Below are positions 632 through 3,518 of a DNA stretch of 3,518 nt, piece by piece. Numbering within the stretch: position 1 is the stretch's first letter; each line of letters starts with the position of its first letter. The notes under the pieces are model-generated. The model was not told the origin of the DNA. It did not search any database and worked only from the letters and a program-made list of their open reading frames with translations. This stretch comes from Escherichia coli. GTDB lineage: Bacteria; Pseudomonadota; Gammaproteobacteria; Enterobacterales; Enterobacteriaceae. Location: assembly GCF_003334355.1 (NCBI RefSeq), contig NZ_QOWP01000070.1; one strand, written 5' to 3'. Both the position numbers and the translations under genes were made by a program.

Positions 632-754
632 AGCGTTTTCCCACAGGTGACTTACTATAACCGTAGCAAATTCTGCGGCTCTGGCTATGCTCGAGAAAAT
701 TCCATAAAATGCATTTCAAATATACTTTATAAATTAAACAAAATGAGTAAGAAG
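632..754. promoter_or_regulatory. Divergent intergenic region between ydcK and tehA; expected to hold both promoters. Only weak -10-like hexamers are visible (TATACT 721-726, TAAAAT 705-710) with no convincing -35 partner.
   Basis: 123-bp non-coding gap between two divergently oriented start codons. The box assignments are by eye only. Confidence 0.3.
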
Positions 755-1747
755 ATGCAGAGCGATAAAGTGCTCAATTTGCCGGCAGGCTACTTTGGTA
801 TTGTGTTGGGGACGATAGGGATGGGATTTGCCTGGCGCTATGCCAGCCAGGTTTGGCAGGTCAGCCACTGGTTAGGGGATGGGCTGGTGATTCTGGCGAT
901 GATCATCTGGGGATTATTAACTAGCGCATTTATTACCCGACTCATACGCTTTCCGCATAGCGTGCTGGCGGAAGTTCGCCATCCAGTGCTGAGCAGTTTT
1001 GTGAGTTTGTTTCCGGCAACGACGATGCTGGTGGCGATTGGTTTTGTTCCGTGGTTTCGCCCACTGGCGGTGTGCCTGTTCAGTTTTGGTGTCGTGGTTC
1101 AGTTGGCTTATGCCGCCTGGCAAACTGCGGGATTATGGCGCGGATCTCACCCTGAAGAAGCTACCACGCCTGGACTGTATCTGCCGACAGTTGCCAACAA
1201 CTTTATCAGCGCAATGGCCTGTGGTGCGTTGGGCTACACCGACGCCGGTCTGGTGTTTTTAGGCGCAGGCGTTTTCTCATGGCTAAGCCTTGAACCGGTG
1301 ATCTTGCAGCGTCTGCGCAGTTCGGGAGAATTACCCACGGCACTGCGGACATCACTCGGCATTCAGCTCGCTCCTGCGCTGGTGGCCTGTAGTGCCTGGC
1401 TGAGCGTCAACGGCGGCGAGGGTGACACGCTGGCGAAAATGCTTTTCGGTTATGGACTGCTGCAACTGCTGTTTATGCTACGTCTGATGCCATGGTATCT
1501 CTCCCAGCCATTTAATGCTTCATTCTGGAGTTTCTCGTTCGGCGTATCTGCACTGGCAACCACCGGTTTGCATCTGGGGAGTGGCAGCGATAATGGATTT
1601 TTCCATACGCTGGCGGTGCCGCTGTTTATCTTTACCAATTTTATTATTGCAATACTGCTCATCCGTACTTTTGCGCTTCTGATGCAGGGAAAATTGTTAG
1701 TCAGAACCGAGCGCGCCGTTTTAATGAAAGCAGAGGACAAAGAATGA
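755..1747 (+). CDS. tehA: Tellurite resistance protein TehA; TDT-family inner-membrane anion transporter, homologue of plant SLAC1 channels
   Basis: Long plus ORF (track 647..1747) encoding a strongly hydrophobic multi-pass membrane protein that I recognise as TehA. Start placed at ATG 755 ([19 protein letters not shown]...), which gives 330 aa and has a purine-rich GAGTAAGAAG just upstream. In-frame ATG 743 and GTG 647 are alternatives. The TGA stop at 1745-1747 overlaps the tehB ATG. Confidence 0.9.
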
Positions 1748-2337
1748 TCATTCGTGACGAAAACTATTTTACTGATAAATATGAATTAACCCGCACACAC
1801 TCTGAAGTACTGGAAGCGGTGAAAGTGGTTAAACCGGGTAAAACGCTGGATCTGGGCTGTGGCAATGGTCGTAACAGTCTTTACCTGGCAGCCAATGGTT
1901 ATGATGTTGACGCATGGGATAAAAATGCCATGAGTATCGCCAACGTCGAGCGCATTAAATCTATTGAAAATCTGGATAATTTACACACTCGGGTCGTTGA
2001 TCTGAATAACCTCACATTTGCTGGACAGTACGATTTTATTCTTTCGACTGTGGTGCTGATGTTCCTTGAGGCTAAAACCATCCCAGGGCTGATTGCCAAT
2101 ATGCAACGTTGCACGAAACCTGGCGGTTACAACCTGATTGTGGCGGCGATGGATAGCGCTGATTATCCATGTACCGTCGGCTTCCCGTTTGCCTTCAAAG
2201 AGAGAGAATTACGTCGATATTACGAAGGCTGGGAGATGGTGAAATACAATGAAGACGTCGGCGAGCTGCACCGCACCGACGCCAACGGTAATCGTATTAA
2301 ACTGCGTTTCGCCACGATGCTGGCACGTAAAAAATGA
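1744..2337 (+). CDS. tehB: Tellurite resistance protein TehB; class I SAM-dependent methyltransferase
   Basis: 197-aa ORF. SAM-binding motif I LDLGCGNG at 1846-1869 ([17 protein letters not shown]). The overall sequence matches what I know as E. coli TehB. Its start overlaps the tehA stop in ATGA (1744-1747), and AGAGGA lies about 10 nt upstream inside tehA. Confidence 0.95.
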
Positions 2338-2343
2338 CCCGGT

Positions 2344-2398
2344 AAGAACAAAGCGCGTGAAAATTCCCCACGCTGAGATGGTTTACTGTTCTTCTTTT
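2344..2398 (+). terminator. Weak candidate stem-loop with T-tract downstream of tehB
   Basis: AAGAACA (2344-2350) pairs with TGTTCTT (2387-2393), enclosing an inner GCGTG/CACGC stem (2355-2359 with 2369-2373), followed by CTTTT (2394-2398). The outer stem is AT-rich and the loop large, so this is not a canonical intrinsic terminator. Confidence 0.2.
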
Positions 2399-2497
2399 CG
2401 GTAAGCATATTTTTTATCGAAGGGATGTGAAATTAATCACAGTAGTCGAAGTTTTTTAGCAGCTTAACTAACTGAAATTTAACTACTGATGATTGAC

Positions 2498-2543
2498 TTA
2501 GCCCCTTTTTCGGCATTGACTATGTCGTCTGAAAAGGGGCTAA
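2498..2543. repeat. Perfect 12-bp inverted repeat (TTAGCCCCTTTT / AAAAGGGGCTAA) separated by 22 nt, in the tehB-ydcL spacer
   Basis: Arms 2498-2509 and 2532-2543 are exact reverse complements. The 7-mer ATTGACT occurs as a direct repeat at 2492-2498 and 2515-2521, the second copy inside the loop. An A6 run follows, not a T-run. Confidence 0.5.
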
Positions 2544-2594
2544 AAAATTTATTTTCACCAACACTTTTTTTGCCACAACACGAAGCGGCGCTTT

Positions 2595-2631
2595 TTGCTA
2601 TAACTTAAAAAGTAATATAATCATCTCAGGA
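2595..2631 (+). promoter_or_regulatory. Candidate ydcL promoter and ribosome-binding site: -35-like TTGCTA (2595-2600), consensus -10 TATAAT (2616-2621), Shine-Dalgarno AGGA (2628-2631) 8 nt before the ATG
   Basis: Exact TATAAT hexamer 19 nt upstream of the ydcL start, and AGGA at canonical spacing. The -35 match is weak and the spacer is only 15 bp, so the promoter call is tentative; the RBS is solid. Confidence 0.3.
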
Positions 2632-2639
2632 AACTATTC

Positions 2640-3308
2640 ATGCGTACCACATCATTTGCGAAAGTTGCAGCTTTATGCGGCTTATTGGCTCTGTCTGGTT
2701 GTGCCTCTAAAATCACCCAGCCAGATAAATATTCTGGTTTTTTAAACAATTACTCTGATTTAAAAGAAACAACCTCGGCTACAGGTAAACCTGTTTTACG
2801 TTGGGTAGACCCGAGTTTTGATCAAAGCAAATATGACAGCATCGTCTGGAACCCAATCACTTATTATCCGGTACCGAAACCGTCGACCCAGGTAGGGCAG
2901 AAAGTTCTGGATAAAATTTTGAACTATACCAACACCGAAATGAAAGAAGCGATAGCGCAGCGTAAACCACTGGTTACCACCGCTGGGCCGCGTAGTCTGA
3001 TTTTCCGTGGGGCCATTACCGGTGTAGATACCAGCAAAGAAGGGCTGCAATTCTATGAAGTGGTTCCTGTTGCATTAGTGGTTGCGGGGACGCAAATGGC
3101 TACAGGCCACCGTACCATGGATACTCGCCTCTATTTTGAAGGTGAGCTGATTGATGCAGCGACTAATAAACCGGTTATCAAAGTCGTTCGTCAGGGCGAA
3201 GGTAAAGACCTGAATAACGAAAGTACGCCAATGGCTTTCGAAAATATTAAACAAGTTATTGATGACATGGCGACCGATGCCACCATGTTTGACGTTAACA
3301 AAAAGTAG
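2640..3308 (+). CDS. ydcL: Lipoprotein YdcL (DUF3313-type, function unknown); probable outer-membrane lipoprotein
   Basis: 222-aa ORF. The N-terminus MRTTSFAKVAALCGLLALSGCAS is a signal peptide with lipobox L-S-G-C (2691-2702); Ala at +2 predicts Lol sorting to the outer membrane. Good SD, TAG stop at 3306-3308. Confidence 0.9.
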   Translation: MRTTSFAKVAALCGLLALSGCASKITQPDKYSGFLNNYSDLKETTSATGKPVLRWVDPSFDQSKYDSIVWNPITYYPVPKPSTQVGQKVLDKILNYTNTEMKEAIAQRKPLVTTAGPRSLIFRGAITGVDTSKEGLQFYEVVPVALVVAGTQMATGHRTMDTRLYFEGELIDAATNKPVIKVVRQGEGKDLNNESTPMAFENIKQVIDDMATDATMFDVNKK

Positions 3309-3316
3309 TTCCAGAC

Positions 3317-3341
3317 GCGCCATCGTTAGATGGCGCTTTTT
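3317..3341 (+). terminator. Rho-independent terminator downstream of ydcL
   Basis: Perfect 8-bp stem GCGCCATC (3317-3324) with GATGGCGC (3329-3336), 4-nt loop GTTA, then TTTTT (3337-3341). It starts 9 nt after the ydcL stop. Confidence 0.6.
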
Positions 3342-3518
3342 ATCCGGTGCGCCGTAAAACCCCATCCTTCAGGGCGGGGATATAAGGCGCGGTTTTCCAC
3401 CTGACCAGGTGTTTGCTGTTGTTCAATGTATTGGCGGATGACGGATATTGGCGCACCTCCGCAGCTACTGGCAAAATAGCCAGGACTCCACAAAACGCCT
3501 TTGTAGTAATACCTGACT
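3326..3518 (-). CDS. tnpA: IS200/IS605-family transposase TnpA (Y1 HUH tyrosine transposase), C-terminal fragment; gene continues beyond the 3' edge of the window
   Basis: Minus-strand frame open from the window edge to TAA (complement of 3326-3328). It translates to VRYYYKGVLWSPGYFASSCGGAPISVIRQYIEQQQTPGQVENRALYPRPEGWGFTAHRIKSAI*. The stretch LWSPGYFASSCGGAPISVIRQYIEQQQ matches the conserved C-terminal helix of IS200/IS605 TnpA that carries the catalytic tyrosine, as I recall it from IS608 TnpA (not an aligned comparison). The ORF track omits it because no start codon lies within the window. Confidence 0.6.
   Translation of the reverse strand, partial: VRYYYKGVLWSPGYFASSCGGAPISVIRQYIEQQQTPGQVENRALYPRPEGWGFTAHRIKSAI
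3344..3518 (-). mobile_element. End of an IS200/IS605-family insertion sequence (IS609-like), partial; exact junction with the chromosome uncertain, roughly 3309-3349
   Basis: Contains the TnpA C-terminus and an adjacent imperfect palindrome. A TTTAT pentanucleotide sits at 3339-3343; this family inserts 3' of short AT-rich target motifs. An IS609 copy downstream of ydcL is known in E. coli K-12. Confidence 0.4.
3349..3390. repeat. Imperfect palindrome: 19-nt arms (3349-3367 and 3372-3390) with a 4-nt loop; candidate subterminal hairpin of the IS200/IS605-family element
   Basis: Pairing the arms gives 14 Watson-Crick pairs plus one G-T, with mismatches spread through the stem. IS200/IS605 ends carry imperfect subterminal hairpins of this kind, recognised by TnpA. 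It overlaps the last codons of tnpA. Confidence 0.4.

Follow-up and report, generated by a model that had tools for sequence, protein, structure and literature searches.

tehA and tehB of Escherichia coli share the four nucleotides ATGA, in which the start codon of tehB overlaps the stop codon of tehA. The overlap is real but ordinary, being of the commonest type of gene junction in bacteria, and it is an already known feature. Comparison of tehB loci across species reveals that the ATGA start and the Shine-Dalgarno (SD) sequence ahead of it are properties of tehB, with or without tehA, which is a mildly new comparative result. The overlap is best read as a default product of gene packing. SD-assisted restart at tehB, which would make TehB synthesis partly to strongly dependent on tehA translation, is the most likely account of how the junction is used (probability roughly 0.6).

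The tehA and tehB genes

The stretch of DNA analyzed here, referred to as the window, is 3518 nt long and is the E. coli ydcK-tehA-tehB-ydcL region (Table 1). At least 80% of its length is matched in 5405 of 5426 complete E. coli genomes, with ~98-99% identity among the matches listed. The RefSeq gene order is ydcK (-), tehA (+), tehB (+), ydcL (+), an IS200/IS605 tnpA pseudogene, and insQ.

Table 1. Positions of the principal features in the window.
Feature	Position	Strand	Description
tehA coding sequence	755..1747	+	993 nt, 330 aa; TehA/SLAC1-family anion channel or dicarboxylate transporter
tehB Shine-Dalgarno sequence	1732..1737	+	AGAGGA with core GAGGA at 1733-1737, in the last tehA codons, 6 nt from the ATG
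ATGA overlap	1744..1747	+	tehB start 1744-1746, tehA stop 1745-1747; spacing -4 nt
tehB coding sequence	1744..2337	+	197 aa, starts MIIRDENYF; SAM-dependent tellurite methyltransferase
Stem-loop	2498..2543	+	in the 301-nt tehB-ydcL spacer; candidate tehAB transcript end

TehA scores 571 bits against the NCBIfam equivalog model NF008032 (cut-off 342) and matches the Haemophilus influenzae TehA structure 3m71 over residues 5-315 (E=2e-61). TehB scores 398 bits against the equivalog model NF008405 (cut-off 218) and matches PDB entries 4dq0 and 2xva, the crystallized E. coli TehB, with an E-value of about 1e-130 and an identical N-terminal Met. The gene names given in the earlier note are therefore upheld by equivalog models, solved structures, and RefSeq annotation alike. 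The open reading frame list gives the tehA end at 1747, and its start was placed at 755 to agree with the length annotated by PGAP. The C-terminus of TehA reads KAEDKE, followed directly by the stop codon.

The tehB frame has an upstream in-frame stop at 1591, and the ATG at 1744 is the earliest possible start. Other starts were considered for tehB and rejected; none lies in frame upstream, and the next candidates, GTG at 1819 and 1825 and ATG at 1930, lie at least 25 codons downstream within conserved sequence.

According to reviews, TehA is a membrane transporter, TehB is a SAM-dependent methyltransferase, and the two jointly confer tellurite resistance upon overexpression. The pair is known in the literature as the tehAB operon, and the Salmonella tehA and tehB mRNAs, which behave alike in qRT-PCR, are said to be possibly co-transcribed. 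On the basis of this literature, the evidence suggests that tehA and tehB share a single mRNA. No terminator was found between tehA and tehB. A candidate internal tehB promoter within tehA (TTTGCA-16-GATAAT, 1567-1594) was given no weight because promoter-like matches number 3 in the sequence and 5.1 +/- 2.5 in shuffled sequence.

The ATGA overlap

The ATGA at 1744-1747 was read directly from the letters. The TGA of tehA consists of the TG of the tehB ATG and the first base of the second tehB codon. This codon is ATC (Ile), in keeping with the A-first constraint on the downstream codon 2 of -4 overlaps. The earlier note had placed the tehB ATG and the tehA TGA on one shared ATGA, a placement borne out by the letters, the open reading frame list, the TehB N-terminus, and the RefSeq annotation. 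Two genuine protein-coding genes on the same strand, as judged by NCBIfam cut-offs and solved structures, thus share stop and start, and tehA/tehB is a textbook member of the -4 nt (NTGA) class of co-directional overlaps.

The + strand of the window has 18 copies of ATGA and the - strand has 12. A bare ATGA is therefore common, and it takes on meaning only by lying where two verified genes meet.

The junction is highly conserved within the species. A 61-nt junction sequence was recovered from 5403 of the 5426 complete E. coli genomes, in an identical form in 3322 and with 95-99% identity in 2081. The segment GAGGACAAAGAATGATC is invariant across six aligned Escherichia sequences including E. 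albertii, and all differences lie elsewhere in the junction. The 4-nt overlap is also present in the PGAP annotation of each of the five RefSeq genomes examined; in two of the RefSeq loci (L001 and L002), tehA spans 2178-3170 and tehB spans 3167-3760. The supplement of Huber et al. 2023 (PMC10666635) lists b1429 tehA / b1430 tehB with the entries '-4' and 'CMPLX not', so the overlap was already catalogued in a published genome-wide table.

Initiation signals and RNA folding

The tehB SD forms a duplex of -5.8 kcal/mol with the anti-SD sequence. The tehA SD is weak, with a best duplex of -2.2 kcal/mol, and in the predicted ensemble the tehA start codon at 755 is mostly base-paired, with a probability of 0.03 of being unpaired. 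Because the SD is weak and the start codon is predicted to be almost always paired, tehA is probably poorly initiated. A second in-frame tehA ATG lies four codons upstream at 743 (MSKKMQSDK...; window 743-757).

The junction RNA is not predicted to fold stably. The 120-nt junction has a minimum free energy (MFE) of -14.2 kcal/mol vs -18.4 +/- 3.2 kcal/mol for shuffled sequences (z = +1.33), and an equal or lower MFE was obtained in 182 of 200 shuffles. Within 30 nt on either side of the tehB start, the local MFE is only -3.8 kcal/mol. In a context of 100 nt on either side, the tehB SD has a mean unpaired probability of 0.35 and the tehB AUG one of 0.52. The aligned junctions show no evident conserved hairpin. 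Because the junction is not stably folded, a hairpin that masks the start of tehB has little support. Together, the good tehB SD and a junction that folds no better than its shuffles make independent initiation of tehB feasible, as is the case for bioBF.

The tehB SD lies in sequence that also encodes the TehA tail. TehA residues 316-330 (window 1700-1747) lie past the point where the solved H. influenzae homologue ends. Among Enterobacteriaceae, the last ~15 residues of TehA vary in both sequence and length, with the exception of the codons NAG GAN, which constitute the tehB SD. This variation of the tail apart from its SD codons suggests that constraint acts at the nucleotide rather than the protein level.

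Comparative survey of tehB loci

A search with an alignment of diverse TehB proteins, in a collection where each species is represented by a single genome, yielded 80 species-level tehB loci. The positions of tehA, its stop codon, and the tehB start were located in each locus, and tehA was scored as adjacent if it lay within 2.5 kb. By this measure tehA is adjacent to tehB in 20 of the 80 loci and lacks adjacency in 60. All 20 tehA-adjacent loci belong to Enterobacteriaceae, and in each the identity of TehB to the query is 68% or higher.

The loci without adjacent tehA comprise 23 short-form and 37 long-form tehB genes. Long-form TehB carries an N-terminal extension of ~90 residues, as in H. 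influenzae 3m70, and is found in Pasteurellaceae, Streptococcus, Acinetobacter, Yersinia, Serratia, and others; adjacent tehA is missing from all 37 of these loci (L036-L082). TehB of the Streptococcus mitis group is 58-60% identical to E. coli TehB, which is as close as many gammaproteobacterial proteins. The sequences hint that the mitis-group gene may have been acquired by horizontal transfer.

Where tehA is adjacent, the junction moves within a narrow range. Among 20 other tehA-adjacent species, the spacing is -4 in ten, -1 in seven, and ambiguous between +2 and -4 in three (Pseudocitrobacter and Pluralibacter). The -1 junctions read TAATGA or TGATGA, differ from the E. coli GAATGA by one substitution, and retain the ATGA as a second stop. 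In Salmonella enterica (L083, 2487-2514) the overlap is -14 because tehA uses the other frame and extends 14 nt into tehB, up to a TGA in the context GAGGAAAAAAATGACCGTTCGTGA; the SD and ATGA are kept. The junction thus takes the values -14, -4, -1, and +2, and no tehA-adjacent species has a spacer longer than 2 nt.

The SD is similarly persistent. An AGGA-type core lies at about -12 to -9 in 19 of the 20 other adjacent species, and Pluralibacter (L027) has a weaker, shifted GGGA. Most tehB loci without tehA also have an SD at about the same distance, with more variable strength. SD strength was compared between the two groups as a proxy for how far tehB relies on coupling. Judged by eye, the mean SD duplex is similar, at about -6.0 kcal/mol in tehA-linked loci and about -5.6 kcal/mol in loci without tehA, where the values spread more widely. 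The ATGA start is likewise found in 19 of the 23 stand-alone short-form tehB genes, which begin with Met-Thr, Met-Asn, or similar.

tehB therefore starts with ATG-A (Met-Thr or Met-Ile) regardless of tehA, and an upstream gene that arrives in the right frame will stop there. The tehA frame of the window is free of stops from 1684 to the ATGA; stops in the third frame lie at 1722, 1725, and 1755. With stops near the tehB start in each frame, an upstream gene that runs into tehB will end within a few codons whichever frame it uses. A 2025 review (PMC12548453) likewise describes the -4 spacing as abundant because it is easily evolved.

Loss of tehA in relatives

Among Enterobacteriaceae, the place of tehA, whether the gene is present or absent, is always between ydcK and tehB. 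In nine Enterobacteriaceae, ydcK lies beside tehB without an intervening tehA (L009 from Lelliottia, and L013, L014, L016, L019, L021, L023, L028, and L032). These loci have a divergent ydcK ~110-140 nt upstream of tehB. Comparison of Lelliottia nimipressuralis (L009, 986-2600) with Enterobacter cloacae (L010, 4-2600) reveals a clean deletion of ~980 nt that spares only about the last 24 nt of tehA, namely the SD, weakened to CAGGA, and TAATGA.

As these locus comparisons show, tehA is dispensable for the retention of tehB. In many lineages tehB is retained in the absence of tehA, so its initiation region is evidently able to function by itself. The retention of tehB without tehA in many relatives also cautions against treating TehA-TehB as an obligate transporter-enzyme unit.

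Comparison with known overlapping gene pairs

The trpE-trpD and trpB-trpA pairs of the E. coli trp operon are the classical cases of translational coupling. Like tehA/tehB, they have a stop/start overlap and an SD within the upstream coding sequence. The trp pairs encode heteromeric enzyme subunits and have been tested genetically; TehA and TehB, unlike the products of these pairs, are not known to associate.

The -4 spacing is the commonest co-directional spacing in E. coli, where 707 of 2,987 unidirectional pairs (24%) lie at -8 to +6 (PMC10666635). The same study found that coupling drops sharply beyond a spacing of ~20 nt. It reported complex subunits in 30.4% of E. coli short-overlap pairs vs 6.8%, a 4.5-fold enrichment; the remaining 69.6% of short-distance pairs encode no complex. 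tehA/tehB does not differ structurally from the general -4 class, and it is grouped with the ~70% of short-distance pairs whose products are not subunits of a complex.

Dual reporters have been used to examine five native ATGA pairs of E. coli (Huber et al. 2019, PMC6728339). Four of the five were coupled: three strictly and menDH at ~60%, with no coupling in bioBF. Removal of the SD lowered reinitiation in four of the five pairs. Saito et al. (PMC7538156) used ribosome profiling under RRF depletion and argued against reinitiation as a major mechanism of coupling in E. coli, and the mechanism of coupling is treated as unsettled in the 2025 review (PMC12548453).

The closest counterpart of the tehA/tehB junction is that of E. 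coli ydbH/ynbE, another -4 pair with GAGGA, a 6-nt gap, and ATGA, in which the SD lies within the upstream gene. The two junctions read GAGGA-AAAACA-ATGA in ydbH/ynbE and GAGGA-CAAAGA-ATGA in tehA/tehB. In ydbH/ynbE, coupling has been measured, is strict, and requires the SD (PMC6728339). The ydbH/ynbE products act together (PMC11126948), whereas tehA/tehB is scored as a non-complex pair. E. coli bioB/bioF is similar in a different respect: it is compared here as two enzyme genes with an ATGA overlap and no obligatory complex. The SD of bioF is very weak (GCGG), yet the gene is fully translated without coupling; tehB, in contrast, has a good SD.

Probable translational coupling at the junction

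According to the favored explanation, a ribosome that ends tehA at UGA 1745-1747 would stop right on the tehB AUG. It could be held there by the GAGGA 6 nt behind the AUG and would probably restart on tehB, in which case a substantial part of TehB output would probably depend on tehA translation. Because the tehA initiation region appears weak, coupling would keep TehB output linked to an upstream gene that is itself poorly translated. The -4 spacing falls inside the reinitiation range of about -8 to +10 nt (PMC10666635), with the Salmonella -14 just outside it, and the downstream SD lies within the upstream gene. A layout identical to that of ydbH/ynbE further raises the odds that tehA/tehB is coupled, and the tight junction retained by all tehA-adjacent species also speaks for coupling.

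The earlier note took the ATGA as indicating translational coupling. Coupling is a reasonable expectation from the spacing, the SD, and the ydbH/ynbE layout, but "indicating" is too strong, given that bioBF is uncoupled, the mechanism is disputed, and the junction has no stable structure. Both the occurrence and the strength of tehA/tehB coupling are what we infer, and they are plausible. A literature search found no published test of tehA/tehB translational coupling; Taylor 1994, Liu 2000, Turner 1997, and Whitby 2010 lay outside its coverage. The accessible parts of the supplements of Mori 2021 and Burkhardt 2017 contain no tehA/tehB values.

As the main alternative, the overlap could be a neutral by-product of compaction, with tehB initiated de novo at its own SD and essentially independent of tehA, as in bioB/bioF. 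The conserved tehB SD, with its -5.8 kcal/mol duplex and optimal 6-nt spacing, and the junction without stable structure both accord with this view. bioBF, likewise an ATGA pair, has a fully translated downstream gene without coupling, and the genome-wide case against reinitiation (PMC7538156) points the same way. So does the survey, in which tehB stands alone behind ydcK in nine Enterobacteriaceae, the Lelliottia deletion left the SD and TAATGA in place, and the ATGA start is the rule in stand-alone tehB (19/23). The reporter experiments weigh against neutrality, since four of five tested E. coli ATGA pairs are coupled, including the identically arranged ydbH/ynbE. So do the absence of any spacer longer than 2 nt among tehA-adjacent species and the mean unpaired probability of just 0.35 for the SD (+/-100 nt context). 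Neutrality thus has an appreciable chance of being correct, though the chances are against it.

A further proposal is that coupling exists to provide a fixed TehA:TehB ratio for a transporter-enzyme complex. The enrichment of complex subunits among short overlaps lends this some general appeal, as does the treatment of TehA and TehB by reviews as one resistance determinant. At this locus the details run against it: most E. coli short-distance pairs (69.6%) are not complexes, and tehA/tehB is curated as 'CMPLX not' (PMC10666635 supplement), which is a literature curation rather than an interaction assay. Linkage across genomes is also inconsistent, with tehA adjacent at 20/80 loci and missing at 60/80, including the 37 long-form loci and the nine ydcK-tehB Enterobacteriaceae. 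Moreover, coupling alone gives no 1:1 output, as reinitiation efficiency differs between gene pairs. The fixed-ratio proposal is accordingly improbable. The earlier note's description of a stoichiometrically expressed transporter and partner enzyme is not supported, given the same curation, the missing tehA, and the ATGA as the default start of tehB. Least probable of all is coupling by RNA unfolding, in which structure masks the tehB ribosome binding site and ribosomes that translate tehA melt it. This is a recognized general model (PMC12548453), and the moderate mean unpaired probability of the SD agrees with it. However, the 120-nt junction folds worse than its shuffles, the MFE around the start is slight, and the aligned junctions have no evident conserved hairpin; a masking structure at the junction was rejected on the first two of these.

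A broader reading combines several of these elements. It holds that the SD and ATGA are independent of tehA, and that tehA is dispensable and was lost in several Enterobacteriaceae lineages. Where tehA is present, the TehA tail (~15 residues) would be shaped by the tehB ribosome binding site, and coupling would throttle TehB via the weakly initiated tehA and set no ratio. Taken as a whole, this reading is offered tentatively and is rather doubtful.

If the two genes do prove to be coupled, mutations or insertions in tehA are expected to be polar on the tehB methyltransferase. Such polarity would be relevant to the interpretation of tehA knockouts in studies of tellurite or antiseptic resistance. 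Beyond good annotation, the importance of the overlap is small.

Flanking elements

The stem-loop in the tehB-ydcL spacer consists of UUAGCCCCUUUUUCGGCAU...AUGUCG...AAAAGGGGCUAA, followed by AAAAAATTTATTTT, an A run and then a T-rich stretch. Its MFE is -25.3 kcal/mol vs -11.4 +/- 2.8 kcal/mol for shuffled sequences (z = -5.0), and none of 200 shuffles is as stable. A simple terminator scan did not call this stem-loop, and an Rfam scan of the window returned nothing relevant, its sole match being a chance snoRNA (E=0.84). The predicted structure may terminate tehAB transcription or may be an RNA element of another kind.

Both ends of the window carry insertion sequences. Positions 1-78 are the end of an IS3-family element, whose terminal repeat ends ...CCGGGGCGGTTCA at 78. 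Copies of this segment with 100% identity are found at many IS3-family transposase loci in E. coli, both chromosomal and plasmid-borne. The element truncates ydcK (79-631, - strand) after ~184 of 326 codons. In most genomes the match to the window starts no earlier than 76-78, and the best match covers 1-78 only as a separate piece that belongs to a different IS copy. The IS-ydcK junction is therefore not contiguous among the matches listed from 5,426 complete genomes.

At the other end, ydcL has an intrinsic terminator at 3317-3336, composed of GCGCCATC-GTTA-GATGGCGC and then TTTTT. Directly after this terminator (region 3317-3518) is the edge of an IS200/IS605-family element, with a tnpA pseudogene on the - strand and insQ/TnpB beyond. 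Genomes that lack the element stop matching at 3343 and run into ydcO, which places the insertion boundary at ~3343/3344.
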